Source: a bacterium (lineage in GTDB: Bacteria > Electryoneota > RPQS01). Taken from it: DNA of 64,000 bases. The stretch lies in NCBI GenBank assembly GCA_036504735.1, contig DASXUQ010000014.1, forward strand, positions 31,852-95,851. The letters run 5' to 3'. The notes beneath the pieces are model-generated. The model made no database searches. It worked only from the letters and a program-made list of their open reading frames with translations, and had not been told where the DNA came from. The position numbers and the translations under genes are program-made. Shown here in pieces: positions 2,525 through 57,372 of the stretch. The first letter of the stretch is position 1. Each line of letters starts with the position of its first letter.

Positions 2525-4051
2525 CTATTTGAGCACCATCAGTTTGGTTGTGGTTTGGAGGCTCCCGGAGGAAACCTGCAGCAGATAGAGGCCACTTGCG
2601 AGTGCGGATGCATCGTAGCGGTAGCGCACTGTTCCGGCGCTGACCGGCGCGACCGCACGGGACACGGCTTGTCCCAAAAGATTGTAGACGACCAGATTTA
2701 CCTCCTTGCTATAGGCAGGAAGTGATAGTTCGACGGTGGTGCTGCTATTGAAGGGATTGGGGTAAACGGAAAGGCTGAAGGCGGAAGGATGAAGGATGAC
2801 AGGATCGGCTGCGGCATGCAGGCCGGAATCGCCACCCAGAATCACCACCTTTCCCCGCTGCGCGGCATATTCGATCCCGCCGTTAGCGCCAATGGCTAAG
2901 TCGTCGATATGATCGCCGTTGATGTCCCCCAGATTGACCGCGGTCTTGAAGTGAATGAGGTTGAACGGATCGGTCCAGCCGTAGATCACAAAAACAGGGG
3001 TGGGATTGATCCATTGACCGCCAAGGTGGAGTGTCAACACGCCTGCATAATTGTTCTCGCAGTACCCTGCGGCCATTACAATGTCACGGAAGCCATCATG
3101 GTTGAAGTCTCCTGCTGAAACGATTCCTCCCGGACCACCTCCTGAGCAGGGGAAGTTCAAACGCCAAGTTGCTGAGGTGTCAATGATGGATGCTCCCCAA
3201 ATGATGGATGCACCACCTGTCTCACCGTGCGCTACCTCGTCGTACCCGTCGTCGTTGACGTCGGAGAGAATAGTCCCTGAAAATACATCCACGCTAGAGA
3301 AGATGTACGCTGGTATAGTGTCGGGGTTCGAACCGCCAAGAAAGAGCGGAGGGCCATAGGATGAGCCGGTATCGCAAATGAAATCCGAAAAGTGATCGCC
3401 GTTCACGTCCCTCGTGCCACGAACCGACAGAATGGGGGCGCGGGTCCAGTCGGGCAGTGTATCCATCGGGTTGCCGCCGGCCAGTGCCTGCGATCTTCGG
3501 ATGCCCGATCCGGCATCTACCAGCAGCAGTAGATCATCAAACCCATCGCCGTTGAAATCGCCTATGGGAGCGCATGAAAGCGATCTAATAACCAGATCGG
3601 GTACCTCATGCGGTCCCGGCCCGCCGAAGTAGATCTTGTAAATGTGCGCTGCGGTGCTGTCGCCGAGGTAGCTGGTGAAGATGAACCAATCAGTGTATCC
3701 ATCTCCATTCAGATCACCGACGGCCTGTGCCCCTCGCACCGCCACCTCTGTCGCCGGATCCTTGACACGCACCATGTAGGGAATTGTGTCGGGCGGGTTG
3801 CCGCCGTGGAAGAACTCCACTTTAGGCTCGTTAGGGCTGCCTTGCGGGGCATAGCCCAAGCCGGAGGCATAGACGGCGAAGTCATTGAAGCCGTCGTCGT
3901 TCTGATCACCCAAGGCTAAAATCTGGCTGCCGTAAAGGGAGGAATCCCCGGCTCCTTCCCGTGACCAGATGGCGTGCGGCGCATAGGGCTGGGCAGAGGC
4001 AAGCGCAGAACAAAACAGGAGTAAGAGTAACAGGTGAGCAACTCGCCACAT
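2525..4051 (-). CDS. FG-GAP (integrin-alpha-like) repeat protein with a T9SS C-terminal sorting domain.
   Basis: Signal peptide. Multiple DxNGDGxxD repeats. C-terminus VYPNPFNSSTTVELSLP...LYLLQVSSGSLQTTTKLMVLK is typical of the Por/T9SS CTD. Confidence 0.8.
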   Translation of the reverse strand: MWRVAHLLLLLLFCSALASAQPYAPHAIWSREGAGDSSLYGSQILALGDQNDDGFNDFAVYASGLGYAPQGSPNEPKVEFFHGGNPPDTIPYMVRVKDPATEVAVRGAQAVGDLNGDGYTDWFIFTSYLGDSTAAHIYKIYFGGPGPHEVPDLVIRSLSCAPIGDFNGDGFDDLLLLVDAGSGIRRSQALAGGNPMDTLPDWTRAPILSVRGTRDVNGDHFSDFICDTGSSYGPPLFLGGSNPDTIPAYIFSSVDVFSGTILSDVNDDGYDEVAHGETGGASIIWGASIIDTSATWRLNFPCSGGGPGGIVSAGDFNHDGFRDIVMAAGYCENNYAGVLTLHLGGQWINPTPVFVIYGWTDPFNLIHFKTAVNLGDINGDHIDDLAIGANGGIEYAAQRGKVVILGGDSGLHAAADPVILHPSAFSLSVYPNPFNSSTTVELSLPAYSKEVNLVVYNLLGQAVSRAVAPVSAGTVRYRYDASALASGLYLLQVSSGSLQTTTKLMVLK

Positions 4052-10874: not shown

Positions 10875-12551
10875 CTATTTCAGAATGACCATTTTCTGAA
10901 TGGCGTGTCCTGCCGTTCCTTCGAATCTTACGAAGTAAATTCCTGTCGTAAAGCCTTCGGTATTCAAGGCAAGGTGCTGCTCTCCGGCAGCCCATTTTGT
11001 TTGCGGCCAGGTGAACGCCTCGCGTCCGAGAACATCATAGACGGTTAGTCTGCCGCTGCCGTTGCTGGGCAGCGTGAGCGTGAGTGTCGCCGTGCCATTG
11101 ACCGGATTGGGATAGGTGGACAGAAGCACCGGCGAGTTCGGAACGGGATTGGGCGTGACGGGAACCGCATCGAAGATGTAATCCGCCGCGGCGAGGGCAT
11201 TCATGATTCCCCAGCCGAAATCATTATTCGCGCTATCGGCCATGGAGGCGGTTTGCATCATCGCATGGCGCACCATCTGCGCCGTCCATGTCGGATGCGC
11301 TTCCATAATCAGCGCCGCTGCGCCGGAGACAATCGGTGTCGACAAAGATGTTCCCGCGGCAAAGCCGTAGTTGTCCTGCGTGTGGGCCTCTGCCCACAGT
11401 ACCCATGTTCCCTGCGCGGAAATGTCCGGTTTGATGCGGCCATCTCCGGTCGGACCGGGCGAGGAAAACCCGGCGATTTCCCCCGTGGTGTCCACCGCGC
11501 CGACTGCCAGAATCGAATCCGCGTCCGCCGGCGTGACGATATGATTCCAGGAGGAAAACCGTTCATTGCCGGCGGCGGTGACGCACAATATTCCGTGCGC
11601 CGCGGCGACTTCGAGACCGCGCGTGGTGGTGGCGGTATGGCCGTTCAGGTCAGGAAACGGGTACCAGAAATCCGGTGCTTCGCCGATGTAGCCGAGGCTT
11701 GACGAGGTGATATCCGCGCCCAGGCTGTCCGCCCAGTGCAGCGCCTCCACATAGTAATCTTCTTCAGCGTGCGTCTCCGTCGGCACCCATTCGGTTTTGG
11801 CGCAGAGAAAATCGGCGCCGAAGGCCGGACCCACCAGCATGCTGTCGCGATAGCCGCCGCACACCGACAGTGTTCCCGTGCCGTGGCCGCTTTGTCCTGC
11901 GCTGTCTTCGCCGGCCACATCTTGAACGGTAGTGTCGCGGTGAATAAAATCGTACTTTGCCACGACGTGCAGACTATCAAAGGCGCGGTGATACAGTTCG
12001 TAGCCGGTATCGAGGAAGCAGATCAGGACGCCACGTCCGGAGAGCCCGCGGTGATGCAACTCCGGAATATGCGACATTGCGTATTGATGCAGCGAAAGCC
12101 CGTAATTCGGATCATCAAGCGTCCCTTGCGCGCGCGTCGGATGCTCATTCATGCCGGTCTTTCGCAGATGGAACTGCTCGAGGGTCTGCACGCCGTCCAT
12201 TTCCCGGATTGCGGCAAACTGTTGGGGCGTCGCCTCAATGCTGACGGCATTCAGCCACGGGCTCACCGTGCGGATTCGTGCGCCCGTAGACCGTATCTGC
12301 TCCACATAGCGGGCGCTGACCGGAAGATCATAGTTATCGGCCAGCGGAACATGATTCTTGATCCGCCGCGCAAGCGCGCGCGGAGTGAGAGTCTGTTCTG
12401 CCTGCTGCAGGGCCAACTGCCGCTCGGCGGGGGAGAGCCCTTTGTCGCGGAGATAGACCCAGTAACGCGCGGTATCATCCGCGGCATGTGCGGTACAGAC
12501 CATCAGCAGTAGCGCCAGCGCCGACAGGGCCGGCAGTCTCCGGATCAACAT
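10875..12551 (-). CDS. Subtilisin-like serine peptidase (S8 family) with a T9SS C-terminal sorting domain.
   Basis: Signal peptide. Catalytic D, H and S in DTG, HGTG and GTSLSTP motifs. C-terminus LSTYPNPVNGTATLTL...FVRFEG...QKMVILK. Confidence 0.85.
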   Translation of the reverse strand: MLIRRLPALSALALLLMVCTAHAADDTARYWVYLRDKGLSPAERQLALQQAEQTLTPRALARRIKNHVPLADNYDLPVSARYVEQIRSTGARIRTVSPWLNAVSIEATPQQFAAIREMDGVQTLEQFHLRKTGMNEHPTRAQGTLDDPNYGLSLHQYAMSHIPELHHRGLSGRGVLICFLDTGYELYHRAFDSLHVVAKYDFIHRDTTVQDVAGEDSAGQSGHGTGTLSVCGGYRDSMLVGPAFGADFLCAKTEWVPTETHAEEDYYVEALHWADSLGADITSSSLGYIGEAPDFWYPFPDLNGHTATTTRGLEVAAAHGILCVTAAGNERFSSWNHIVTPADADSILAVGAVDTTGEIAGFSSPGPTGDGRIKPDISAQGTWVLWAEAHTQDNYGFAAGTSLSTPIVSGAAALIMEAHPTWTAQMVRHAMMQTASMADSANNDFGWGIMNALAAADYIFDAVPVTPNPVPNSPVLLSTYPNPVNGTATLTLTLPSNGSGRLTVYDVLGREAFTWPQTKWAAGEQHLALNTEGFTTGIYFVRFEGTAGHAIQKMVILK

Positions 12552-14082: not shown

Positions 14083-15619
<1,537 letters not shown>

Positions 15620-15813
15620 AGCAATCTACGGTGCTACACTCTTCGGAGTTCGCACACGATAGATAAGGTCGAAACCCTGATCTCAGGTTCTACGGAACCA
15701 ACCTTTAAGATTTCTCAGACCGCACATCTTCCTTTTTGATTTTTTCCTTTTCGCCGAGCAGAGTGTCGGATCGAAAATGGCCGGCGAAAGTCGGCCATTC
15801 CCTTTCGCACGTT

Positions 15814-15889
<76 letters not shown>

Positions 15890-15957
15890 GACGATTTAGC
15901 CGAGCGCAAACTGACGCCACAGCTGGAGTCGTGGCAGAGACATCTGCCCGGATTCAC

Positions 15958-16030
15958 GGGGCGTTAGTTCAGCTGGGAGAACGCCGGCTTTGCAAGCCGG
16001 AGGTCATCGGTTCGATCCCGATACGCTCCA
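15958..16030 (+). tRNA. tRNA-Ala (UGC) in the 16S-23S spacer.
   Basis: ggggcgttagttcagctgggagaacgccggctTTGCAagccgg...acgctcca, with the G3:U70 identity pair. Confidence 0.9.
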
Positions 16031-16399
16031 CATCGTGAGCGTATTTCTTTCTGATCGAAAAGGATAGTTGCCGTTGTCGTAATGGGCGGCGGTATGATGC
16101 ACGCAGTGATCTTTCTTAGATGATTTTTCGCAGCCGGTCGCAGGACCGGTCGTGACGAATAGACGATTATCCACTGATGTCGCCCTGGCGGCAACCCAGT
16201 GAGGCCGATTATCGGCTTGATCTTTGACAATTGGAAACAGCAACGTTATTCGACGAGGATAACGTTGCGTACGAGATTCTCGAGAAAACCAACGAGGTCT
16301 AATATCGACCTCGCTAAAAAATAGATATTGCTCAGTAATGAGCTGAGAACGAAAGCTGCTTGGGACAATTTGTCTATCTGTAAAGCAGAATAGTTTTTC

Positions 16400-19330
<2,931 letters not shown>

Positions 19331-19531
19331 GATTTTTAATTCTCTTTAAAGATGGTCAAGTTGTCCCCAGCGGCTTTCGAAAATGGGTTTTTACTTCGTA
19401 CGCAAGAGCTTGTCTTTTGCTGTTTCCAATTGTTGAGTTTCTGCGGCTGATGCGGAAGAGTCCCAAGCCCCTCACGGGTGCTTCACCTTCCCAGCCGCAT
19501 TGCTTTGAGCCGCCTGTGGCGGCCAACGGCT

Positions 19532-19648
<117 letters not shown>

Positions 19649-19660
19649 AATTTTCTTTCA

Positions 19661-19752: not shown

Positions 19753-21051
19753 GTGGTGCGAACCCCGTTGGCCCTACTGCGATCCCTTCCGGTCCGGACC
19801 CAGATCTGGATCCTTTTTGTCTTCGGATTGGCTGCGCGCACTGCTGTGAGCCTCTTTTTCGCGGACAACCATAGTCTGTATTTCGAGCATATGCTCATTG
19901 CGCGGAACCTTCTGGAGGGAAAGGGCTATTCGTGGGATGAGTGGGGCCGGGCGGCGCTGCAATCCAGTTCGATGATTCCGCCGCTATACGTGTATTGGTG
20001 TGCTTTCTTTCAGTGGCTGTCCCCTGCGAATTTTCTTCCGATGTATCTTGGGCAGGCGGTGATCGCCGCGACGGGATGTTTCCCTGCCTATCGCCTCGGC
20101 AAGAGACTGTTCTCCGAGCGCGCGGGGCTACTGTTTGCCGCCTGCTATGCCTTTTACCCCGAACTGGTGTTTATTCATTCGAAGGCTGTTGCGGAATCTA
20201 TTTATGTCGTAATGGTTCTGTGGATGATAGAAAGGTATGCGGCCCTGCGGGAAGAGCCGCCAGGATCACGACGCGCTGTGAAGATTGCCGTGTTTGTCGG
20301 TGCCCTAAGCGGGACGGCCATGCTGGTCAAAGAGGCCGCCGGAATTGTGGCCATCGCCATCGTACTGGCGCTGCTGCTCCGATTCCGCGCGCGGATTACT
20401 GCGATCCGCAGCCATATGCTGCCGGCGCTGGCCGCAATGGCTCTGGTGATGTGTCCGTGGATTGTTCGCAACGCGATTGTCCAGGGAGAGTTCATTCCGA
20501 TCCGCACCGCCTTCGGCATTAACTGGTGGGTCGCCAATCACCCGGGCGCGGCGGGGAATGACCGCTATGCGGATGGCACCTATGTGATGTCATCGCTGCC
20601 GAAGGACTACGCGGATTATTTGAACCGTATTCTTCCCTTCGACGAACAGGATCGAGATCGTGTCTACGCAGAGGAAGTGCTGAGGTTCATCAGACAGCAC
20701 CCTTCGGAGTATCTTGCGCTGTGTGGGAAGCGGTTCGTGTACTGGATTTGGTTTGTATCCGGCCATCAACTGGCAAAGAACCCCGTTTATCGGGCATCGT
20801 GGATCGCGTTACTGGCCCTGTCGATTCCGGGGCTGGTTTGCGCAGCACGTCGACACCTCCTCGATCCGGTTTTCTCTTTAAGCCTATTGGGATACATGCT
20901 GCTGTATGTTCCTACGACAGTCCTTCCTCGCTATCGTGTGGTGACTACCACCATCCTCCTGCTGTTCGCTGCCGTGGCGATTGATGGCATTGCGCGTTAC
21001 GTGGAGGCGCGATCAAAGGCCTCTGCGCTGAGCAGCCCTCCTCCCGCCTGA
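19753..21051 (+). CDS. Polytopic membrane glycosyltransferase, GT39/ArnT/PMT_2-like (GT-C fold), paralog 1.
   Basis: 432 aa, about 11 TM segments. Conserved block GKGYSWDEWGR...PPLYVYWCAFF. Clear paralog of the next gene. Confidence 0.55.
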   Translation: MVRTPLALLRSLPVRTQIWILFVFGLAARTAVSLFFADNHSLYFEHMLIARNLLEGKGYSWDEWGRAALQSSSMIPPLYVYWCAFFQWLSPANFLPMYLGQAVIAATGCFPAYRLGKRLFSERAGLLFAACYAFYPELVFIHSKAVAESIYVVMVLWMIERYAALREEPPGSRRAVKIAVFVGALSGTAMLVKEAAGIVAIAIVLALLLRFRARITAIRSHMLPALAAMALVMCPWIVRNAIVQGEFIPIRTAFGINWWVANHPGAAGNDRYADGTYVMSSLPKDYADYLNRILPFDEQDRDRVYAEEVLRFIRQHPSEYLALCGKRFVYWIWFVSGHQLAKNPVYRASWIALLALSIPGLVCAARRHLLDPVFSLSLLGYMLLYVPTTVLPRYRVVTTTILLLFAAVAIDGIARYVEARSKASALSSPPPA

Positions 21052-21107: not shown

Positions 21108-22379
21108 ATGAAATCTCTCCTGTCTCGGTTGAGCCCCCGCTTTGTCCCGATGCACATCCTCGCGATCTTCCTGTTTGCACTGATCGCGCGGGAGGCGGTT
21201 ACGTTTCTTGTGGCGGAGTTGGACAAGACCTTTGAGTATCAACTTATCGCTGCGAATCTTGTGAATGGGCTTGGGATGTCGTGGAATGAGTGGGGCCGGT
21301 TGCCGTTACAGCCCACGGCTCTCTTTCCGCCGCTTTACATCTACTGGTGTGCCTTTTTCATTTGGATTTTCGGCCAGAGCAACTTAGTAATGTTCGTTGT
21401 GCAGGCTGTGGTGTCCGCTTCCGGATGCCTGCCTGCCTATCTGGTCGGCAGACGGATGTTCTCGCCTCGGATCGGCACGCTGTTCGCTGTCGCTTATGCG
21501 GTGTATCCGGAGATGATGTACGTGCATTCCCGCGCCACACCCGAATTCCTGTATGTGGTCATCTGCCTGTGGGTGCTTCATCTCTATCTGCTCTTGGCCG
21601 ACAACGACGTCGTATCACGTGACTTCGTAAAGCATGCGTGGATCCTCGGATTCCTGACAGGTGCGGGGCTGTTGGTTCGCGAAGGAGTTCTCATCGTCAG
21701 TGGGGCTGCGGGGCTCTCGCTGATAATGAAAAAACGTCCGGTCGGTCTGGTTATCAAAAACCTTGTTTTGCCCGTGGCGCTCGCTACGATGCTTGTGCTG
21801 GCTCCTTGGACGATTCGCAATTGGATTGTCCAAGGGCGCTTCATCCCGCTGCGCTCCGCATATGGTCTCAATTTGTGGATGGGGAATCATGAAGAGGCCA
21901 CCGGTACGGATAAGACCATGGACGGGCGCTATCAAATGGGATTGCTTTGGGAGAAGAACCGGGAATACTACGCCCGGACCATTCCCAATGACGAATACGA
22001 CCGGAACCAGTTCTATCGCAATGAAGCCCTGGAGTATATCCGGACCCATCCCCGGCACTACATGATGTTGACTGCGAAACGCCTCTGGTACTTTGTCTGG
22101 TTCGACCCTACTCATCCGCTGGCAAAGAACCGAATCTACCGGGCATCCTATATGCTGCTGCTAATTCTTGCGATCCCCGGGATCGTGCAGGCCGCGAGAG
22201 CGCGCAAATTGGATGCGGCCCTTGTGATCGCATTCGCGGGATTTCTGCTTTTATATGTCCCGGTGATTATCCTGCCGCGCTATCGCATTGTTCCAATGAT
22301 GTTCCTGCTACTTATGGCCAGTGTGGCCGTGGACTGGATAATCCAAAGATATCTGGCAGGACAGAGGAGACGCACATGA
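21108..22379 (+). CDS. Polytopic membrane glycosyltransferase, GT39/ArnT/PMT_2-like, paralog 2.
   Basis: 423 aa. Same architecture and conserved blocks as 19753..21051 (GLGMSWNEWGR...PPLYIYWCAFF...ILPRYR). Confidence 0.55.
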   Translation: MKSLLSRLSPRFVPMHILAIFLFALIAREAVTFLVAELDKTFEYQLIAANLVNGLGMSWNEWGRLPLQPTALFPPLYIYWCAFFIWIFGQSNLVMFVVQAVVSASGCLPAYLVGRRMFSPRIGTLFAVAYAVYPEMMYVHSRATPEFLYVVICLWVLHLYLLLADNDVVSRDFVKHAWILGFLTGAGLLVREGVLIVSGAAGLSLIMKKRPVGLVIKNLVLPVALATMLVLAPWTIRNWIVQGRFIPLRSAYGLNLWMGNHEEATGTDKTMDGRYQMGLLWEKNREYYARTIPNDEYDRNQFYRNEALEYIRTHPRHYMMLTAKRLWYFVWFDPTHPLAKNRIYRASYMLLLILAIPGIVQAARARKLDAALVIAFAGFLLLYVPVIILPRYRIVPMMFLLLMASVAVDWIIQRYLAGQRRRT

Positions 22380-24094
22380 GCGGACGATATGGGTTTGCTT
22401 CGCGATGCCTCACGGCCATCGTGTTGGTTCTGGCAACGGCATTGATGACATTTGCCGACGAGTCTACTCAATACCTGCAATTCCCGCTGGTTGATCATCC
22501 GGCGTACGATTACTTCAGCCGGCTGGAGACGTCGCAGGATGTCCCGCTGTTTTCCGGAACGCGGCCCTATCTGGGATTTGTATATCATCCGCGGCGGCTT
22601 CCGGAGGAGGCGTCGCGTTCCTGTGAGGCGCGGCGGTATCTGGCGGAAGGCTCGGGCAATATGTTTATCGTCGGGCAGTTCCGTGATGAACCTCGAGAGT
22701 CCTCTTGGAATGCAGTGAAGGACAAGCTACCCTTCGGCCTGCGCAGGGCATCGTGGCTCTACGAGAGTGGCTTTCATCTGGCGAGTTGGGAATACGATTC
22801 CACGCTGGCCGCCTCAATTCAACCGGTATATGGTCTCGATGTGATTCGCACGGACAGTGCGGACAGAACCATCAAACGATTTGCCGGTGGCCTGCGGGTT
22901 GAAGGCGGCTACGCCCAGCGCCTGCACTTCATGGTGGATTTCCGTGACTATACGGAATCGGGGAATGGTTCGTATCTGGGTGATGCCATTGGCCGGGGGC
23001 GGCTTTATGAAGACCGCTGGGGGCTGGTGGAACTCGGCGACAGCAGCTCGAAGCCCATGTCCACCTCATACAACATCTCCGAGTCCTTCCTGCAGTACTA
23101 CGGTCAAAATCTTTCGCTTGCGGCGGGAAGAGGCCGCTTTCGCTGGGGACCGGCGCAGTTCGGGTCGCTGTTTCTGAACTCGCAGATGCCCCCATTCGAC
23201 TATGTCCGCTTTGACGCCGCCATCGAGGCGCAGCACAGCGACGCCGCTGTGTATTACACGTTCCTGCACGGCTGGCTCGAATCGGATCTGCCGGCGGAAA
23301 CGTTGTATGTCAATCCGGGGGGACGTCCGCGCACGCTGGATGCGGCCAAGTATTTGAGCGCGCAGCGGCTGGAGCTTCGCCCGTTCCGAAATCTACTGTT
23401 CGGTCTGTCCCAGGGCATTGTCTATGGGGATCGCCCGGTTCAGCTTGGTTATGTGACCCCGTTGAACTTTCTGTACAGCGTGCAGCACTCCATGAACGAC
23501 AAAGACAATTTCGTTCTCGGAATGGATGGGACGTGGCGCCCCGTACGCGGCATGAAGTTTTACAGTGAGCTGTTCTTCGACGACATTACCGTATCGGCGC
23601 TGACCACCGCCAGGGGCACGAACAAGTCCGCCTACACGGTGGGCACACAGCTCATGCTGCCCCACCCCTTCTTTGAACATTTCGACGCCCGGGTGGAATA
23701 CACCAAGATCCGGCCATTTGTCTATTCGCACATTTTTGCCGCCAATGTATATACCCACTGGACGTCACCCATCGGGTATACCCGGCAGCCGAACAGCGAA
23801 TTCCTGACCGCGGAATTGCGGGCGGTGTTCTATCCGCTGGAGGTGGCCGTGCATATTGTCCATCAGAATCACGGCAGCGTCGGCGGAAACATCTACACGC
23901 CGCTCTACGAGAACAGCCAGACGAATGTCTACAAATTTCTGTCGGGCGACTTGGTGCGGACGACCCGCGCCGGATTGCAGGCTTCCTGCGAAGTGCTGCC
24001 CAACCTGTTTGTCTTTGCATCGGGAACGCAGGTGAAGACGACGGCCAAGCCGGATCGCGTGGAGTTGGAAGGCGGTTTCAGTTGGAATCGCTGA
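22376..24094 (+). CDS. Large outer-membrane beta-barrel protein (capsule-assembly Wzi-like or alginate-export-like). Translationally coupled to the upstream GT.
   Basis: Signal peptide. 572 aa, rich in alternating aromatic/Gly strands. ATGA overlap with the preceding gene. Confidence 0.4.
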   Translation: MSGRYGFASRCLTAIVLVLATALMTFADESTQYLQFPLVDHPAYDYFSRLETSQDVPLFSGTRPYLGFVYHPRRLPEEASRSCEARRYLAEGSGNMFIVGQFRDEPRESSWNAVKDKLPFGLRRASWLYESGFHLASWEYDSTLAASIQPVYGLDVIRTDSADRTIKRFAGGLRVEGGYAQRLHFMVDFRDYTESGNGSYLGDAIGRGRLYEDRWGLVELGDSSSKPMSTSYNISESFLQYYGQNLSLAAGRGRFRWGPAQFGSLFLNSQMPPFDYVRFDAAIEAQHSDAAVYYTFLHGWLESDLPAETLYVNPGGRPRTLDAAKYLSAQRLELRPFRNLLFGLSQGIVYGDRPVQLGYVTPLNFLYSVQHSMNDKDNFVLGMDGTWRPVRGMKFYSELFFDDITVSALTTARGTNKSAYTVGTQLMLPHPFFEHFDARVEYTKIRPFVYSHIFAANVYTHWTSPIGYTRQPNSEFLTAELRAVFYPLEVAVHIVHQNHGSVGGNIYTPLYENSQTNVYKFLSGDLVRTTRAGLQASCEVLPNLFVFASGTQVKTTAKPDRVELEGGFSWNR

Positions 24095-24301
24095 GGCCGA
24101 TAACGAGTGTAGGAGCGAGGTCCAAAAGAACCATCGTGTGGCCTGTTGAGGATCACGGCTATGGAACGTTTTGGCTACGTGTCTGAGGGTGAACAGCACT
24201 GGCCGGACACTTGCATAGTACTCGCGCTGGTCTCTTCGGGACTGGCCCCGAATTCGTTTGTTAGTTATTGATATTATGGATATTGTAATAGGAAGTGCGC
24301 T

Positions 24302-24544
24302 ATGGCGAAGATCATTATCGAATATTGCGCGGTCTGAAACTACTATCCGAAAGCGGTCAGTATGGCCGATTATCTTGAAAAACAAGGGTTTGACAGGCCG
24401 GAACTCCTTGCCTCATCCGGCGGTGCGTTTGAAGTCAAATTGCAGGGTGACCTCCTTTTCTCCAAACACCAGCAACACCGCTTCCCTGAGCAGGCCGAAG
24501 TTCTTGATTTGATTAAAAAAGCAACGAGTAATCCCGCATCATAA
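24302..24544 (+). CDS. SelW/Rdx-family selenoprotein. The in-frame TGA at 24335..24337 is read as selenocysteine (CxxU).
   Basis: ATG at 24302 with AGGAAG 8 nt upstream. Translation: MAKIIIEYCAV-U-NYYPKAVSMADYLEKQGFDRPELLASSGGAFEVKLQGDLLFSKHQQHRFPEQAEVLDLIKK. The C-terminal part (GGAFEV..GxLLFSK..RFP) matches the Rdx fold. The ORF track reports only the 60-aa fragment after the TGA. Confidence 0.6.
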
Positions 24545-24569
24545 TTCTCTCGTAAAGATATAGCAGGGC

Positions 24570-24598
24570 TTGACATTCCATAGTGCTCGCGTTATATT
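24570..24598 (+). promoter_or_regulatory. Sigma-70-type promoter (TTGACA-17-TATATT) for the beta-helix cargo gene.
   Basis: Exact consensus hexamers with a 17-nt spacer, about 60 nt upstream of the ATG at 24657. Confidence 0.55.
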
Positions 24599-24656
24599 CT
24601 CTACCGAAGAAACGTATTGGTCAACAAAGGCAACATCAACCGGCAAAGGTGGGAGA

Positions 24657-26300
24657 ATGAGGCGGCTGTTCGGTACCATTTTCACAGCGATTCTGTTGAG
24701 CATGGGCTTGCCCGTAATGCTCATCGCTGGGGGTACTCATGTCAGCGGAGACGTCTCGGGAGTGTGGCCCACCGGCGAAGTTGTGTTCGTGGATGCTCCG
24801 ATTTTCATCTCGCCGGACAAAGCCCTGGTCATTGAGCCCGGGGTTCGCATTAGCTTCAAGACAGATGCTCCGTTCGTAATTTCCGGCTCCCTGAGCGCCG
24901 TGGGATCGGTTGATGCGCCCATTGTGATCGAACCGATGGAAAATTGGTCCGGCTTCCAGTTTTTGGAAAACGGCACCAGCAATATCCGGGTTCTGCGCTA
25001 TGTTCACATCAGCACCGAATTCGGTTTGCCGGCCTACGTCGTCGTGGCGACTCGGTCCCTGCTGAATATCGACGACTGCGATTTCCGCGCACACTTGTCC
25101 TGTCTGTGGATGGACGGCGGTCGCCTCTGGGCAGATCGTAACAGCTTCCTCACCACAAATCAGTATTCGAAGGCTGTGCGCCTGAACCAGTTGCTCAATG
25201 ACGGCGGCTCGCCGTGTGAGACGGGCTCCGCCGGCAATCGTATGTCGGAAAACATGATCAAGGTGGACGCCGATGGAGACTTTAATCCCGGCGACGACCA
25301 GATGACCATGGGGTTGATGGTGGAAGGCTCCACCAACACCTGTTTCCGCGGCAATGTAATTACGGTGTCGGCACCCGGCCAGGTAATCGGCGCCTATTTC
25401 GGACGGACCAACGACGTTGGCACGGATATGTGGGTGTTGGACTACTGTGTCGTTACGGTTCGCGGATCGGGCGCGTGGGCGCACGGCATTTTCAATGCCA
25501 ATGAGGGTGCTCTGCGGGTGATCCGCTGTTCGGTGGATGTGGCCAACATTGGCGGCCATGATCCGATGGGTGTGATTGCCTCGGGTATTGCGCAGGTAAT
25601 GGTCAACAGTTGTCTCGTCCAGGTTGAGCGCGGCGCTTCCTATTACGTCACCTTGGGCGGACGGGCCTCCATGGATGTGGACTATTCCGATCAGTGGCGC
25701 CTCCCCGGCTCGTCCGATCAGCCTGGAAATCCTCCCGGTGGTGATGGCGGCGGCATTGGAGAATGGTCTGAGTACTCCACGCAGAGCATTGTGTACGGGA
25801 ACCATGTTTACTTCATGGATCCGAACTTACGGCGTGAAGGCGAATGGGGACAGTGGCATTCTATGTCCGACGTTCAGGCCTATTACGGCGTTGCGGCTCC
25901 GTCGCCGTGTATCGATAATGGTGATACGGTGTACTGCGGCTGGGATCCCGACCGCACACTGCCGGATATTGGCCGTTACTACTACGACGAAGGTGTGACT
26001 GGAACCGACCCGCAGCACCACGCCACACTGCCTGTCAGTGCGGTGCTGTCACCGGCGTTTCCCAATCCCTTCAATGCTACAACGGTTATTCCATTCGAAT
26101 TGAGCCGCGGTGGCTCGGTTCGCGTGGTCGTGTATGATGTCCTCGGGCGCGAGGTGGCGGTGCTGAAATCCGGAATGGTTCTGGCAGGCAGCCATCGAGT
26201 CCAATTCGGGGGCGAGAACCTTTCCTCCGGCTTGTACATCGTGACAGTTCAACTCGACGGCGTCGCTGTCGGATCTGAACGGGCGATGTTACTGAAATAG
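24657..26300 (+). CDS. Right-handed parallel beta-helix repeat protein with a T9SS C-terminal sorting domain.
   Basis: Start reassigned to the ATG at 24657 (signal peptide MRRLFGTIFTAILLSMGLPVMLIAGG; RBS aaaggtgggaga). C-terminus FPNPFNATTVIPFEL...LYIVTVQLDG...AMLLK. Confidence 0.75.
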   Translation: MRRLFGTIFTAILLSMGLPVMLIAGGTHVSGDVSGVWPTGEVVFVDAPIFISPDKALVIEPGVRISFKTDAPFVISGSLSAVGSVDAPIVIEPMENWSGFQFLENGTSNIRVLRYVHISTEFGLPAYVVVATRSLLNIDDCDFRAHLSCLWMDGGRLWADRNSFLTTNQYSKAVRLNQLLNDGGSPCETGSAGNRMSENMIKVDADGDFNPGDDQMTMGLMVEGSTNTCFRGNVITVSAPGQVIGAYFGRTNDVGTDMWVLDYCVVTVRGSGAWAHGIFNANEGALRVIRCSVDVANIGGHDPMGVIASGIAQVMVNSCLVQVERGASYYVTLGGRASMDVDYSDQWRLPGSSDQPGNPPGGDGGGIGEWSEYSTQSIVYGNHVYFMDPNLRREGEWGQWHSMSDVQAYYGVAAPSPCIDNGDTVYCGWDPDRTLPDIGRYYYDEGVTGTDPQHHATLPVSAVLSPAFPNPFNATTVIPFELSRGGSVRVVVYDVLGREVAVLKSGMVLAGSHRVQFGGENLSSGLYIVTVQLDGVAVGSERAMLLK

Positions 26301-30823: not shown

Positions 30824-31759
30824 ATGATCCAACTGACTCAAGTTACAAAATCCTACAACGGCGTGAAGGCGGTCAACGACATCACGCTGTCCATCCCGCA
30901 GGGCCAAATTTTGGGATTTCTCGGCCCCAACGGAGCCGGGAAAACCACCACCATGCGGATGCTTACCTGCTACATGCCGCCGACATCGGGATCTATCTCG
31001 GTGGACGGCCTCGATGTGGATGAGCATTCGCTGGAGGTTCGCAGGAAGATCGGCTATCTTCCCGAAATGGCTCCGGCCTATCAGGACATCAACGTGGTGG
31101 ATTATCTCCGCTACGTGTGCGATTTGCGGCATGTACCCAAGGAAAACCGCAGCGCCCGGATCAAGGCGATTGTCGACCGCTGCGGCCTGCAGGACGTGCT
31201 GGGCAAGGACATCGGCCAGCTCTCCAAGGGCTACCGGCAGCGCATCGGTCTGGCCCAGGCCATGGTGCATGATCCCGACATTCTGGTGCTGGATGAACCC
31301 ACGGCGGGTCTGGACCCCAACCAGATCGCCGAGATCCGCATGCTGATCAAGGAACTCGGACGGCAGAAGACGGTGATTCTCTCCACGCATATTCTGTCGG
31401 AAGTGCAGGCCACCTGCTCGCGGATCGTCATCATCAATCAGGGCCGCATCGTAGCCGATGACACTCCCGAAGGTTTGCAGGCCGGCGCGGAAGGCCGCAC
31501 CGTACTGCTCACCACCGTGCGCACCGCCGCCAAGGATGCCCTGGCCAAGGTTCGCACCCTGCCCGGCGTGGAACTGGCGCGCGAAATGCCCGGTTCTTCC
31601 GGCACCGTGCGCATGCGCATCGAAGCCGGCGGCGGCGTCGATCTGCGCGAAGATTTCTTCCGCATGGCCGTGCGCGAAAACTGGGTGATCCTTGAGATGC
31701 TTCTTGAAGCCCACAGCCTCGAGGACGTGTTCCATAAACTTACCGTCGAGGACAAATAG
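30824..31759 (+). CDS. ABC transporter ATP-binding protein (GldA-like).
   Basis: Walker A GPNGAGKTT, signature LSKGYRQR, Walker B ILVLDEPT. Confidence 0.85.
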   Translation: MIQLTQVTKSYNGVKAVNDITLSIPQGQILGFLGPNGAGKTTTMRMLTCYMPPTSGSISVDGLDVDEHSLEVRRKIGYLPEMAPAYQDINVVDYLRYVCDLRHVPKENRSARIKAIVDRCGLQDVLGKDIGQLSKGYRQRIGLAQAMVHDPDILVLDEPTAGLDPNQIAEIRMLIKELGRQKTVILSTHILSEVQATCSRIVIINQGRIVADDTPEGLQAGAEGRTVLLTTVRTAAKDALAKVRTLPGVELAREMPGSSGTVRMRIEAGGGVDLREDFFRMAVRENWVILEMLLEAHSLEDVFHKLTVEDK

Positions 31760-31766
31760 CAGAGAT

Positions 31767-32477
31767 ATGGACAACATACTCGTCATCTTCAAGAGGGAAT
31801 TCCGTTCCTACTTCGATTCCCCGGTTGCCTACATCGTTCTCATGTTCTTCCTCCTCGTCTCCGGATACTTCTTCACGTCCAACCTGTTTCTGATGAATCA
31901 GGCCAATCTCCAGACTCTCTTCGGAATTATCCCGCTGCTCTACATCTTCTTTGTGCCGGCGATTTCCATGAGGCTGGTCGCCGAAGAGCGGAAATCCGGA
32001 ACGATTGAGCTGCTGTTCACCTATCCCATCAAGGATTCCGAGATCATCATCGGCAAATATCTCGCCGCCCTCGGACTGATCCTGATCCTGCTGCTGTTCA
32101 CCCTCGTCTATGCGATCTCCGTGAGTATGCTCGGCAATATGGACGGCGGGCAGACGTTCTCCGGCTACCTCGCCCTGTTCCTGATGGGCGCGGGCTATCT
32201 GGCCATCGGCGTCTTCGCCTCGTCGATCACGGAGAACCAGATCATCGCTTTCATCGTCGCCCTTGCCATCTCCTTCTTCTTCTTTATCATCAACAAGATT
32301 CTGTTTTTCGTTCCACCGGCGCTCGCCAGCATTTTCGAGTATCTGGCCATCGAGTACCACTTCCAGAACATCGCCCGCGGTGTCATTGACACCCGTGCCT
32401 TGATCTACTTCTTCTCGATGATCTACGTGAGTCTGTTACTCGCCAGCCACGCACTGTCGCGGCGCAAGGGCGACTGA
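31767..32477 (+). CDS. ABC-2 type permease (GldF-like).
   Basis: 237 aa, 6 TM segments. Start reassigned to the ATG at 31767 (MDNILVIFKREFRSYF). Confidence 0.75.
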   Translation: MDNILVIFKREFRSYFDSPVAYIVLMFFLLVSGYFFTSNLFLMNQANLQTLFGIIPLLYIFFVPAISMRLVAEERKSGTIELLFTYPIKDSEIIIGKYLAALGLILILLLFTLVYAISVSMLGNMDGGQTFSGYLALFLMGAGYLAIGVFASSITENQIIAFIVALAISFFFFIINKILFFVPPALASIFEYLAIEYHFQNIARGVIDTRALIYFFSMIYVSLLLASHALSRRKGD

Positions 32478-32506
32478 GCGAACAAGCCAAACAGGAAAAT
32501 AGCCAA

Positions 32507-34102
32507 ATGAAACGAAAAACCTGGTCTGTCTCGTCCATCTCCAGCTTGGCCGTCGTGATCGCCATAGTCGTTGTGATCAACCTGATCGGCACACGGGTCT
32601 TCACCCGCGCCGATCTGACGGAAAAGAAGATCTATACTCTCAGCCCCGCGTCCCGCCACACGGTGGCCAATCTCTCCGACCGCCTTACGGTCAAGGCCTA
32701 TTTTACGAAGAACTTGCCGCCGCCGTACAATGCCAACTCGGAATACATCAATGACGTGCTGCGGGACTATAAGGCTTACAGCCACGGCAAATTCGTCTAT
32801 GAATTCGTGGATCCCGCCAACGAAGCCAAGCTCGAAGAGGAAGCCCAGCGCTACCGCATTCAGCCGGCTCAGGTCAACGTCATGGAGAAGGACAACCTTC
32901 AGGTCAAGAAGGTCTACATGGGCCTCGTGCTGATCTACGGCGACAAGCACGAAACCATTCCCATTATTCAGGACGTCGACGGCTTCGAATATGACATGAC
33001 CTCCACCATCAAGCGGCTGGTCTCCGATCATATTCCCAAGGTCGGGTTCCTCGGTGGTTTCGGCACGCCCGATCTCGGCCAGGACATGCGGAACCTCACC
33101 ACCGCGCTTTCCAAGCACTACGACGTGACCCCGGTCAGCACCGAAGCCGGCAACAGCATGATCGACAACAACATCGACGTGCTCTGCATCGTGCAGCCCA
33201 AGGAGGCGCTGGACGACTGGACGAAGTTCTGTATCGACCAGTATGTGATGCACGGCGGCAAGGTCGGCTGGTTTATCAACAAGGTGAAGGCCGATCCGCA
33301 AACCTCGCAGGCCAGCGGCATGAACCTCGGCATCGACGACATGACGCGCGGTTACGGTTTTGCCGTGGGCAACAACCTGGTCACCGACGCCCACGCCGCG
33401 GCCATTACCGTGCAGCAGCCGCAGGGCAACGTTATGATGATCACGCAGGTATATTATCCGGCCTTCCCGAATATCACGGACATCAGCAAGCAGCATCCCA
33501 TGGTCAAGGACCTGCAGCAGCTCACACTCTTCTTCCCCAGTTCCGTGGACACCGTCCGTCCCGTGGGCGCGCAGGTGCAGTATGCGCCGCTGTTCAGTTC
33601 CAGCGACAAGACCCGGCTTCAGGTAGGCCGCTATGACATCAATCCCATGGCGCAAATGAAGCGCGAAGATTATGTCGGTCCCAAGAAACTGCTCGGCGTG
33701 GCCATGACCGGTACGTTCCAGTCGTTTTTCTCCGGCAAGCCCGTGCCGCATCCCAAGGACAGTACCGCCGCTCTGCCGTCCGTGAGCATCGTCACCCAGA
33801 GCCCGAACACGCGCATGGTCGTCATCGGCGACGGCAACTTCGTGCAGGGCCAGTATGCGCAGGGCGGCGGCCCCAACCAGATTCTCTTCCTCAATGCCGT
33901 CGATTGGCTGAGCCAGGATCAGGACCTGATGAGCATCCGTTCGCGTGAAGCGGCGATTCGTCCGCTGAAGCCGGACATTTCCGATACGACCAAGCAAACC
34001 GTCAAGTACGCCAATCTGTTCGTGCCACCCGCGCTCGTGCTCATGCTCGGACTCTTCCGCTGGACCGCGAAGCGCAATCGCCGCAAGGGAGTGACACTAT
34101 GA
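32507..34102 (+). CDS. gldG: GldG-family ABC auxiliary component (ABC_transp_aux).
   Basis: 531 aa. N- and C-terminal TM anchors with a large periplasmic domain. Sits in a conserved gldA/gldF/gldG-like gene order. Confidence 0.7.
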   Translation: MKRKTWSVSSISSLAVVIAIVVVINLIGTRVFTRADLTEKKIYTLSPASRHTVANLSDRLTVKAYFTKNLPPPYNANSEYINDVLRDYKAYSHGKFVYEFVDPANEAKLEEEAQRYRIQPAQVNVMEKDNLQVKKVYMGLVLIYGDKHETIPIIQDVDGFEYDMTSTIKRLVSDHIPKVGFLGGFGTPDLGQDMRNLTTALSKHYDVTPVSTEAGNSMIDNNIDVLCIVQPKEALDDWTKFCIDQYVMHGGKVGWFINKVKADPQTSQASGMNLGIDDMTRGYGFAVGNNLVTDAHAAAITVQQPQGNVMMITQVYYPAFPNITDISKQHPMVKDLQQLTLFFPSSVDTVRPVGAQVQYAPLFSSSDKTRLQVGRYDINPMAQMKREDYVGPKKLLGVAMTGTFQSFFSGKPVPHPKDSTAALPSVSIVTQSPNTRMVVIGDGNFVQGQYAQGGGPNQILFLNAVDWLSQDQDLMSIRSREAAIRPLKPDISDTTKQTVKYANLFVPPALVLMLGLFRWTAKRNRRKGVTL

Positions 34103-35061
34103 AACGCCCCGTTGTACTGCTCGCCGCGCTCGTCGTTCTGCTGGGCATCTACTGGCTGGTGCAGAAAAGCAGCAAACCCGTGGTGGAAGCGGATCGTCCG
34201 TTCGTGCAGGTGGACAGCGCCAAGGTGAACAAGCTGAACGTCGTCGCCTCCGGCGAGTCCGTGGAAATGGTCAAGGAAGGCGATAACTGGAACATGATTC
34301 GCCCCGTTACCTATCCTGCCGCCTCCAAAACCGTGCAGTCGGCCATCGGCAAGTTCAAGGATATGAAGCGGCTGACCCTGATCACCTCCAAGCGCGACCG
34401 TTTCCGCGAATTTCAGGTGGATGACAGCGCCGGCGCCAAGGTGACCGTTGGCGACGGCAAGAATTCCTACACGGTGTGGCTGGGCAAGATGAGTCCGTCG
34501 GGCAACTCGTATGCCCGTATGGACGGCTCGGATGACATCTGGGAAGTGGGCGGCAATAACGCTGGCACCTTCAAGCGCAAGGCCAAGGACTGGCGCGACA
34601 AGACCATTACCGAACTGAACGCGGCGGACATTCGCAAGATTACCATCCGCTATCCGTCGGAAACCATGATGATGGAGCGACAGGATACCATGTGGACGGT
34701 CAGCAATGGCAAGACGTCGTTCATCGGCACCAAGGGTCCGGCTGACCGCATTACCAATCTGCTCGCCAGAATGCAGACGGTGGACTTCGTGGACAGCCTT
34801 GCTCCCACCGCCTTCGATGCGTCTGCCGCCACGATCACGGTGGAACTTACCTCAGGCTCGCCCATCGAGTTGAAACTGATCCCCAAAGATGCCGAAGCCA
34901 CCCAGTACTTCCTGCGCAAAACGGGCGCTTCCGCGGACTTTGTCATCTACAAGGCGACCGCCGAAGTGCTGATGAAAAAGACCAACGACTTTAAAGATCA
35001 GCCCGCCAAAGCGACCGCCGAACCCGCCAAGGGCAAAAACAAGGCAAAATCCAAAGCGTGA
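34099..35061 (+). CDS. DUF4340-domain protein (the usual partner downstream of gldG).
   Basis: N-terminal TM anchor. ATGA coupling to gldG. Lys-rich C-terminal tail. Confidence 0.6.
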   Translation: MKRPVVLLAALVVLLGIYWLVQKSSKPVVEADRPFVQVDSAKVNKLNVVASGESVEMVKEGDNWNMIRPVTYPAASKTVQSAIGKFKDMKRLTLITSKRDRFREFQVDDSAGAKVTVGDGKNSYTVWLGKMSPSGNSYARMDGSDDIWEVGGNNAGTFKRKAKDWRDKTITELNAADIRKITIRYPSETMMMERQDTMWTVSNGKTSFIGTKGPADRITNLLARMQTVDFVDSLAPTAFDASAATITVELTSGSPIELKLIPKDAEATQYFLRKTGASADFVIYKATAEVLMKKTNDFKDQPAKATAEPAKGKNKAKSKA

Positions 35062-47281: not shown

Positions 47282-47664
47282 CACGTGATATCGTCTCGAC
47301 CACTCAGGCGCCGCAGGCCATCGGGCCCTATAGTCAGGCCGTACGTTTTGCCGGCTCCATCGTCTCCACCTCCGGGCAGATTCCCCTCGATCCGGCCACA
47401 GGCCAGGTTGTCGGCGCCACCACGGCGGAGCAGACCGAGCAGGTGCTGAAGAATCTTTCCGCGGTGCTCGAAGCTGGCGGCGCATCGCTGGCCTCCGTCA
47501 TCAAGACCACCGTCTTTCTGAAGAACATGGGCGATTTCGCCGAGATGAATGCGGTCTACGGCCGCTATTTTCCCAAGGACCCGCCCGCCAGAAGCGCGGT
47601 GGAAGTGGCGCGTCTTCCCAAAGACGTGCTCGTGGAAATCGAATGCCTCGCCCTCGTCATCTGA
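47278..47664 (+). CDS. ridA: RidA/YjgF-family reactive-intermediate deaminase.
   Basis: 128 aa. QAPQAIGPYSQAV...PARSAVEVARLPKDVLVEIE. Confidence 0.85.
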   Translation: MTRDIVSTTQAPQAIGPYSQAVRFAGSIVSTSGQIPLDPATGQVVGATTAEQTEQVLKNLSAVLEAGGASLASVIKTTVFLKNMGDFAEMNAVYGRYFPKDPPARSAVEVARLPKDVLVEIECLALVI

Positions 47665-48197
47665 AGGCGTTGCTCTTTGCTCTTGGCTTGGTGCTGATGG
47701 CCTCGCTGGCTTCCGCCGCCGATTCCACGCGCACCGTCATGCCGCTGCTCTCCGGGCGGCCGCAGAAGAGCACCACCGCTGCCGTCTTCATGTCCATGGC
47801 GGTGCCTGGCCTCGGACAGGCCTACACGCACAACTACATTAAGGCCGCCGCCGCGGTCGCCATCGAAGGCGCTCTCGGTTGGGCCATTTCCTTCAACAAC
47901 GACCAGTACCACGGCTACCGGCGGGCCAATCAGGTGGCCCAGCAGAATCTTGCCGCGGCCTATGCCGAAAACCGCCCGGACACGCTGGTTTACCGGAACC
48001 TGATTGACACGTTCTATGGACCCCGCGAGCGCTTCTTCAAAAACCAGCGCAATCGCAATATCTGGTGGCTGGCGGGAACCGTTATTCTCTCGATGGGAGA
48101 TGCCTATGTGGATGCCCACATGTACGGGCTCGACTTCTCCCCTGACATCACATTCAAGGGCGGAACGGTGGGGCTCTCCGTCGCCTGTAAATTCTAA
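47643..48197 (+). CDS. Hypothetical exported protein (DUF5683-like PGLGQxY motif).
   Basis: Signal peptide. AVPGLGQAYTHNYIKA motif. No catalytic signature. Confidence 0.5.
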   Translation: MPRPRHLKALLFALGLVLMASLASAADSTRTVMPLLSGRPQKSTTAAVFMSMAVPGLGQAYTHNYIKAAAAVAIEGALGWAISFNNDQYHGYRRANQVAQQNLAAAYAENRPDTLVYRNLIDTFYGPRERFFKNQRNRNIWWLAGTVILSMGDAYVDAHMYGLDFSPDITFKGGTVGLSVACKF

Positions 48198-56754: not shown

Positions 56755-57186
56755 ATGGATATGGACCATTTCTCCTGCCCCAACAAGATCTGCCAGGAGT
56801 TCGGCAAATCCGGCGCAGGAAACATCGCGCTATATACGCGCTACGGGCGTAAGCAGGTCCGCTTGCTGATCTGCAACACATGCGGCAAGACCTTCAGTGA
56901 ACTGAAAGGTACACCCTTCTGGGACAGCCGCTTGGACTGGGATACCATCGAGAAGATCTACCGGACGCTGCTGGAAGGGCAGGGGATTCGTGCCACCGCC
57001 CGCCTGCACAAGCTGTCCAAGAACACCGTGAAGCGCTATTTGCGCCTGGCTAAGAAAGACTTCGGGACCGTTGAACAGTTCCTCGAGGATCGCGGCGTGC
57101 TGATGGGTAACACGGCGCAGCTTCGCGACCTTGTGGACACTCACATCAGCCGCAGCAACGGCCACGTTCACTGGGAAGCCTCCTAA
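56755..57186 (+). mobile_element. IS1/InsA-like (or IS1595-like) zinc-ribbon plus HTH ORF. A solo transposase N-terminal module with no catalytic ORF.
   Basis: CPNKIC...RYGRKQVRLLICNTCGKTFS zinc ribbon, followed by GQGIRATARLHKLSKNTVKRYL HTH (InsA pattern). The next feature downstream is tRNA-Pro. Confidence 0.5.

Positions 57187-57296: not shown

Positions 57297-57372
<76 letters not shown>

Follow-up and report, generated by a model that had tools for sequence, protein, structure and literature searches.

A SelW-like gene of the Rdx family with an in-frame UGA, almost certainly a selenocysteine codon, and a conserved coding-region hairpin in an uncultured T9SS-rich bacterium

The window, i.e. 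the whole stretch of 64,000 nucleotides analysed here, carries on its forward strand a frame of 80 codons that begins with ATG, is crossed by one in-frame TGA at codon 12 and ends with TAA (Table 1). The complete frame reads MAKIIIEYCAV*NYYPKAVSMADYLEKQGFDRPELLASSGGAFEVKLQGDLLFSKHQQHRFPEQAEVLDLIKKATSNPAS*, the internal stop being TGA and the terminal one TAA; with the TGA kept as a codon, the translation of 24302-24544 is MAKIIIEYCAV-UGA-NYYPKAVSMADY...NPAS-TAA. Gene callers give only the last 60 codons, because the in-frame UGA is counted as a stop. The preliminary description had presented the gene as an unannotated SelW/Rdx selenoprotein for which only a 60-residue ORF, starting at ATG 24362, is called. 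The ORF list confirmed that ORF and the gene model is truncated to 60 residues; the word "unannotated" did not stand, the source database naming the fragment "selenoprotein W-related protein".

The same-frame upstream start with a good ribosome-binding site, also proposed earlier, was recovered: a Shine-Dalgarno-like AGGAAG stands before ATG 24302, and no comparable motif was found upstream of ATG 24362. Of 135 homologues, 115 have an in-frame ATG 10-12 codons ahead of the UGA, and 86 of 132 show a Shine-Dalgarno-like 4-mer in front of the homologous ATG. The codon homologous to ATG 24362 is a possible start in 37 of the 135 and a non-start in the other 98, CTG being found in 93. The idea that homologues might begin at this downstream ATG did not hold, given this low count and the Cys forms, which read YC..CNY.

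Table 1. Coordinates of the SelW-like locus, its neighbours, other features of the window and the tandem Cys/Sec pairs of related loci.
Feature	Position	Strand	Remarks
Complete rRNA operon	14084..19649		16S, tRNA-Ile(GAT), tRNA-Ala(TGC), 23S, 5S
PMT_2-type glycosyltransferase paralogues, in tandem	19753..21051; 21108..22379	+	
Wzi-like outer-membrane capsule-assembly protein	22376..24094	+	
36-aa ORF of the source annotation, probably spurious	24161..24271	+	L155 9800-9910; overlaps the terminator-like hairpin
Terminator-like hairpin and T-rich tail	24235..24252	+	consensus scan; after the Wzi-like gene (ends 24094)
Shine-Dalgarno-like AGGAAG	24290..24295	+	6 nt before ATG 24302; read from the sequence
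Full SelW-like/Rdx selenoprotein CDS (predicted)	24302..24544	+	80 codons including UGA (Sec12), then TAA stop; ATG 24302-24304, Cys9 (TGC) 24326-24328, TAA 24542-24544
CxxU redox motif TGC GCG GTC TGA (Cys9-Ala-Val-Sec12)	24326..24337	+	from the sequence; aligned to CxxC of Cys-form homologues
Predicted selenocysteine codon, in-frame UGA	24335..24337	+	TGA conservation at the homologous codon
Bacterial SECIS core hairpin CGGUCA-GUA-UGGCCG	24354..24368	+	6 bp; apical loop G24360-U24361-A24362; UGA spacing 22 nt
60-aa ORF from gene callers	24362..24544	+	ATG overlaps SECIS loop and 3' arm
Strong sigma-70-like promoter match	24570..24598		consensus match; before the T9SS-tail protein gene
Proteins with a T9SS C-terminal sorting domain	2525..4051; 10875..12551	-	
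Proteins with a T9SS C-terminal sorting domain	24570..26300; 58062..59579	+	first gene directly downstream of the SelW-like gene
GldA/GldF/GldG-like ABC cluster	30824..34102		
DUF4340	34099..35061		
DUF5683	47643..48197		
Small ORF, weak HTH/TnsD-like matches	56755..57186	+	E ~1e-4
tRNA-Pro	57297..57371		adjoins the small ORF
Tandem Cys/Sec pair, L080	3034 + 3375		Thermoanaerobaculia MAG
Tandem Cys/Sec pair, L158	634 + 906		short assembly contig
Tandem Cys/Sec pair, L159	369 + 712		short assembly contig

Upstream of the SelW-like gene lie two tandem glycosyltransferase paralogues and a Wzi-like gene, for which no functional link to it is evident, and a gene for a T9SS-secreted protein follows directly downstream. 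The terminator-like hairpin behind the Wzi-like gene appears to delimit the SelW-like transcription unit on its 5' side; with this hairpin upstream and the promoter match downstream, the gene looks monocistronic. The 36-aa ORF that the source annotation places across the terminator-like hairpin is probably spurious.

The wider window holds a complete rRNA operon and at least five proteins whose C-terminus is a T9SS sorting domain, one of them on a long ORF that runs off the 3' end and measures 1682 aa in the sister assembly L157. The T9SS tails, together with the Gld-like ABC cluster, DUF4340 and DUF5683, indicate a bacterium of the FCB-superphylum type. Towards the 3' side, a small ORF with weak HTH/TnsD-like matches adjoins the tRNA-Pro gene, and the listed ORFs from 59.6 to 64 kb gave no Pfam matches; the region from 56755 may mark the border of an integrated element or have no significance.

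We compared the 80-residue product, in which U was replaced by C, with profile libraries. It matched Pfam Rdx (PF10262) with 65.2 bits (cutoff 22.6) and an E-value of 6e-18, residues 3-73 aligning to positions 1-74 of the 74 of the profile. The 60-aa ORF scored 40.4 bits and covered profile positions 35-74 only, i.e. the N-terminal 11 codons bring both the higher score and the complete profile. With 53.2 bits against a cutoff of 34.2, the protein also belongs to the subfamily described by NCBIfam TIGR02174 (CXXU_selWTH), while it remained below the cutoff of the equivalog NF041051 (SelTWH_Campy; 80.7 bits, cutoff 88), to which it is related as a non-member. The GGAFEV, LLFSK and RFP blocks, which the preliminary description had recognised downstream as the Rdx signature, are present and are invariant among the homologues. 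All the PDB sequence matches have the Rdx fold, namely MIEN1 (2ljk), Atu0228 (2fa8), SAV_2001 (3dex) and 2ojl. Judged from its sequence, the locus 24302-24544 is a real 80-codon redox-protein gene of the Rdx family.

The fold was examined on an AF2 model of the Cys-form homologue P0003, used as a stand-in for the window protein, to which it is 49% identical over residues 1-72 without gaps. The model (pLDDT 88, pTM 0.74) exhibits the elements E4-9, H15-29, E34-38, E43-47, E50-54 and H66-78, in other words the beta-alpha-beta-beta-beta-alpha order of a thioredoxin-like fold, and the C9xxC12/U12 motif sits between strand beta1 (4-9) and helix alpha1 (15-29). By alignment with P0003, the C9-A-V-U12 motif of the window protein would take the same place, which agrees with the earlier statement that CxxU comes right after the first strand. 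In a Foldseek search with the P0003 model, the best PDB structures were the bacterial SelW-related proteins 2fa8, 2oka, 3dex, 2obk, 2ojl and 2p0g (TM 0.73-0.89), followed by MIEN1 and mouse SelW and then by thioredoxins.

The in-frame UGA is conserved far outside the window. Related loci were retrieved by sequence patterns from metagenomes (72 loci) and from MAGs (80 loci), the latter labelled as Thermoanaerobaculia/Acidobacteriota, Phycisphaerae/Planctomycetota, Calditrichota, Bacteroidota, Krumholzibacteriota, Nitrospinota, Gemmatimonadota and others. Over all the related loci, which come from many phyla and number 154, the homologous codon is TGA in 150 and Cys in 4. As the patterns either spelled Cys at this codon or did not cover it, the excess of TGA is not a bias of the search. 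In the Cys-form homologues (P0003, P0005, L026, L039, L071 and L078), the position of the UGA is taken by the catalytic Cys of CxxC. The window protein is 72% identical to L001, the translated relative closest to it, and 55% to the nearest MAG protein. One Calditrichaceae MAG carries an identical SelW-like gene and flanking peptide on two contigs (L087 and L088), either by duplication or by redundancy of assembly or binning.

The codons upstream of the UGA vary as those of a translated gene do. In 135 distinct sequences, the first two codon bases of this stretch are invariant or nearly so and the variation falls at third positions, with TAC and TAT for Tyr in 104 and 31 sequences and TGC and TGT for Cys in 123 and 12. 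The upstream stretch is therefore translated in the frame of the downstream one.

The truncation of the gene model is not peculiar to the window. A word-indexed protein search returned 6 proteins, of which 1 was the 60-aa fragment itself on a JGI contig of 99.7 kb, 3 were other truncated calls (56-61 aa) and 2 were full-length Cys forms, both of which read YCVVCNYYPRA; where the DNA of the truncated calls was available (2 cases), an in-frame M..I.IEYC..-TGA was found upstream in both. In a library-wide search of representatives, ~31 of the best 150 were short proteins whose first residues align to query residues 16-33. Truncated gene models are systematic in the SelW-like family and concern about one fifth of the closest catalogue representatives, and the 60-aa ORF of the window is an artefact of a Sec codon taken as a stop.

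We then turned to the RNA downstream of the UGA, where the preliminary description had expected a SECIS hairpin. The 78-nt segments from UGA-15 to UGA+62 of the 135 distinct sequences could be aligned without gaps, and RNAalifold, unaided, returned from this alignment a single element, a 6-bp hairpin of columns 35-40 and 44-49 closed by a 3-nt loop. Standard pairs fill 97.9% of the pair cells, compared to 18-58% in controls with the 3' arm shifted by 1-3 columns. Compensatory double-sided changes occur at 4 of the 6 pairs (41 cells), and the covariation score of 0.268 was reached by none of 500 shuffles (0.133 ± 0.006). The pair 36/48 is never broken, being CG in 105 sequences, GC in 16, UA in 8, AU in 3 and UG in 3; because both of its positions are wobble bases of Ala codons, its covariation is not explainable by the protein. 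The first loop base is G in 135/135 sequences and the second is U in 129/135. The stem-loop looked for between 24338 and 24385 thus exists, is conserved and covaries; the location "immediately 3' of the UGA" needs correction, the hairpin starting 19 nt after the U of the UGA.

The choice of codons was examined at the codon that extends over the closing pair and the loop. Where it codes for Gly, it is GGU in 82 of 82 cases, compared to 12% of the Gly codons in the remainder of these genes, and where it codes for Ser, it is AGU in 46 of 46 cases (4.8% of the Ser codons in that remainder). No Cys-form gene has both 6/6 pairs and a GU loop, and three of them have 3/6 pairs only. Among the latter, L078 codes for the same AASLA peptide through AGC and other codons. 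By these comparisons and the covariation, the hairpin is kept by selection and not by the encoded peptide. The window copy presents a G-C pair where the consensus is C-G, and its hairpin is fully paired with the loop GU kept; this compensated pair points to selection on the structure in this sub-lineage too.

The bSECIS model calls for an apical loop of 3-9 nt, an upper stem of 4-16 bp and 16-37 nt between UGA and loop, with a G at loop position 1 or 2, usually as G[G|U], and an MFE of at most -7.5 kcal/mol (PMC13188914). The geometry of the window hairpin agrees with this model in its 3-nt loop, 6 bp, G followed by U and spacing of 22 nt. Its stability is borderline: the hairpin is the MFE structure of the segment from the UGA to +50, at -7.2 kcal/mol compared to the threshold of -7.5 and with a pair probability of ~0.7. 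From the UGA to +60 it is retained with extra pairs and the MFE is -10.0 kcal/mol, i.e. the energy varies with the stretch folded. Taken alone, the hairpin has -5.9 kcal/mol versus a family mean of -7.4 and stands among the weaker members; its five outer pairs are present in the unconstrained MFE structure of 111 of the 135 family sequences. When the 66 nt from 24335 to 24400 were folded, a small competing hairpin at 24341-24362 was the MFE structure; it was rejected as the relevant element, since comparative analysis and shorter folding windows favour 24354-24368.

No SECIS family was found by Rfam, whether the window was scanned at gathering thresholds or 24200-24600 permissively, the latter giving chance matches of E > 2 only. 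Rfam covers bacterial SECIS elements poorly, and for this reason the result is not counted against the element. A generic terminator scan called the SECIS hairpin "terminator-like", because an A/T-rich stretch comes after it; small hairpins in coding regions can be mistaken for terminators. The archetype of the bacterial elements, the SECIS of E. coli fdhF, is likewise a coding-region hairpin close behind the UGA, and its small apical loop opens with G and then U. Compared with it, the window hairpin with its 6 bp, 3-nt loop and -7.2 kcal/mol appears shorter and weaker, and neither a conserved lower stem nor a bulged U was detected.

A few Cys forms still have most of the hairpin and resemble the cases reported as "fossil SECIS" after recent conversions of Sec to Cys (PMC1794560). 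In three related loci, a Sec paralogue is directly preceded by a Cys-form Rdx gene on the same strand, ~100 nt away, and the Cys copy holds a partly decayed SECIS-like hairpin. These tandem pairs could serve as a backup when selenium is limiting, or could stem from a recent duplication in which Sec was converted to Cys. The very compact core of the element follows the consensus GCC-GCC-[G/A]GU-YUG-GCG, which encodes the peptide A-A-[G/S]-L-A and is nearly invariant in at least 8 phylum-level groups. Since it is uniform across phyla and has no Rfam model, it might be defined as a family-specific bSECIS class of its own, and the Cys/Sec tandem of some Thermoanaerobaculia-type loci might be read as a selenium-limitation backup pair like the Cys/Sec isoenzymes of methanogens; we regard both proposals as speculative and rather doubtful.

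The capacity of the host to decode Sec was then considered. Pfam scans of ~50 ORFs of the window gave no SelA, SelB or SelD domain, and ARAGORN found no tRNA-Sec in the window, in the flanks L155-L157 or in 115 related loci, the tRNAs of the window being tRNA-Ile, tRNA-Ala and tRNA-Pro only. In two soil-metagenome loci (L041 and L042, 2453-2540, minus strand), ARAGORN reports an unusually long "tRNA-Val(GAC)" of 88 nt with its anticodon at position 37, ~0.5 kb from the SelW-like gene; its anticodon (GAC) excludes it as a tRNA-Sec. The window corresponds, reversed, to positions 3454-67453 of the 99.7-kb contig Ga0376481_000298 of JGI 3300035523, which was read for ~8 kb beyond the 5' edge of the window, to 75638; the search for sel genes thus covered positions 3454-75638. 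Sample SRR11794808 contains the same organism. The flank to 75638 carries no sel genes, and its genes encode a 676-aa protein without Pfam match, PDZ, citrate-synthase, FapA and peptidase C25 proteins. No sel genes were found on the 3' side in the sister assembly L157 either. This absence says little, as ~72 kb is a small part of a genome of probably several Mb.

Stop-codon usage bears on the same question. Among 32 genes of the window that have Pfam support, 15 use TGA as their ordinary stop, and a recoding at 24335 must therefore be site-specific; a genome-wide reassignment of TGA was rejected on these counts. We also scanned the window for a second selenoprotein, i.e. for TGA-interrupted ORFs with a redox motif and a SECIS-like hairpin, and found no convincing one; the 18 TGA-interrupted candidates were rejected as compositionally implausible out-of-frame ORFs.

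The reading that we prefer is that 24302-24544 is one Rdx gene for an 80-residue protein of thioredoxin fold, in which the UGA is decoded as selenocysteine by means of the downstream hairpin. It is very probably correct, and the in-frame UGA itself almost certainly encodes selenocysteine, as the preliminary description had proposed on the first inspection and as the family match, the conservation of the UGA and the covarying hairpin support. The gene could instead be a relic, if the lineage had lost Sec decoding, in which case the UGA would end translation after 11 codons and the locus would be a decaying pseudogene. Selenoprotein loss is common in bacterial evolution (PMC1794560), and the weakness of the isolated hairpin and the lack of Sec machinery in the ~72 kb examined are in line with such a relic, but both halves of the ORF are intact with every family-invariant residue kept, the hairpin is fully paired with its compensated G-C and its loop GU, and the stretch examined is too small a fraction of the genome for the absence of sel genes to say much. 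We consider a relic improbable.

A true product of 60 residues starting at ATG 24362, with the upstream similarity as a leftover, would be a protein without strand beta1, without the redox motif and without part of helix alpha1. It is what the gene callers predict and it still scores 40 bits against Rdx, but its ATG, unlike ATG 24302, has no Shine-Dalgarno-like motif before it, most homologues have CTG or another non-start codon in its place, and the 11 upstream codons are conserved with third-position variation; such a product is hardly credible. It is very improbable, if slightly less so, that decoding of the UGA involves no selenium, whether because TGA is reassigned (code 4 or 25) or because near-cognate read-through, independent of a SECIS, inserts Trp or Cys. 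The sequence cannot tell which amino acid is inserted, and near-cognate insertion of Cys or Trp at a Sec-UGA under selenium limitation is documented in other organisms. Sense reading of TGA throughout the genome is nevertheless excluded by its use as a stop, the UGA aligns with the catalytic Cys of CxxC homologues, and the hairpin, which is conserved, covaries and has U behind its invariant loop G, is of the kind that characterises SelB-dependent decoding.

Building on the frame conserved across the UGA, the family membership, the conserved UGA and the covarying hairpin, all of them observed, decoding as selenocysteine may be pictured as follows. A ribosome would reach the UGA, the mRNA hairpin with its GUA loop would be bound by SelB carrying Sec-tRNA(Sec), and selenocysteine would be inserted with no termination, translation running on to the TAA; selenium would thereby be incorporated in this organism. 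The product would most likely be a thiol/selenol-based oxidoreductase in which Cys9 and Sec12 join in a selenenylsulfide.

SelW-like selenoproteins are the commonest prokaryotic selenoprotein family in marine metagenomes (PMC1088965, PMC2398784) and the most abundant one in GOS, where 427 Sec genes stand against 56 Cys homologues (PMC2398784); they are also on record from the Sargasso Sea metagenome, and they occur in many sequenced genomes with few Cys homologues (PMC1794560). Bacterial SECIS elements that lie 3' of the UGA and have a G in their small apical loop have been described as well (PMC1088965, PMC2398784, PMC1794560). The window gene shares with the bacterial SelW-like proteins (Pfam PF10262, formerly PF05169; TIGR02174) the length of ~80 aa, the CxxU after the first strand, the GGAFEV/FSK/RFP blocks, the in-frame UGA and the small hairpin with an apical-loop G. 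Cys forms are scarce alike, with 150 Sec and 4 Cys loci here. Nothing of substance differs, and the window gene adds a new sequence from an uncultured T9SS-rich bacterium.

The Cys-form Rdx structures Atu0228 (2fa8), SAV_2001 (3dex), PA3341-like (2oka), 2obk, 2ojl and 2p0g have the same thioredoxin-like fold; unlike the window protein, they carry CxxC, measure ~100 aa and need no recoding signal, and they are 27-38% identical to it. Mammalian selenoprotein W (2npb) and MIEN1/C17orf37 (2ljk) belong to the same family with CxxU or CxxC at the same position. MIEN1 is the best PDB sequence match to the window protein (E = 3.4e-8), and the structural similarity of the mammalian proteins to the P0003 model is lower (TM ~0.6). 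The eukaryotic SelW genes rely on a SECIS in the 3'-UTR with a kink-turn core and on SBP2/eEFSec, whereas the window gene presents a hairpin of bacterial type in the coding region. To our knowledge, no biochemical function has been established for any bacterial SelW-like protein, and the locus sheds no light on it, because the gene is apparently monocistronic and its neighbours encode glycosyltransferases, a Wzi-like protein and a T9SS-secreted protein.

The gene is a new sequence in a SelW-like family catalogued since 2005, and the result is an annotation correction and no novel system. It opens no new question, and its value lies in the annotation, where the deposited 60-aa gene model is without the active site. 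For the organism, the uncultured and T9SS-rich host is a probable user of selenocysteine, a status from which selA, selB, selC and selD are to be expected in the remainder of the genome, and perhaps other selenoprotein genes that were mis-called.
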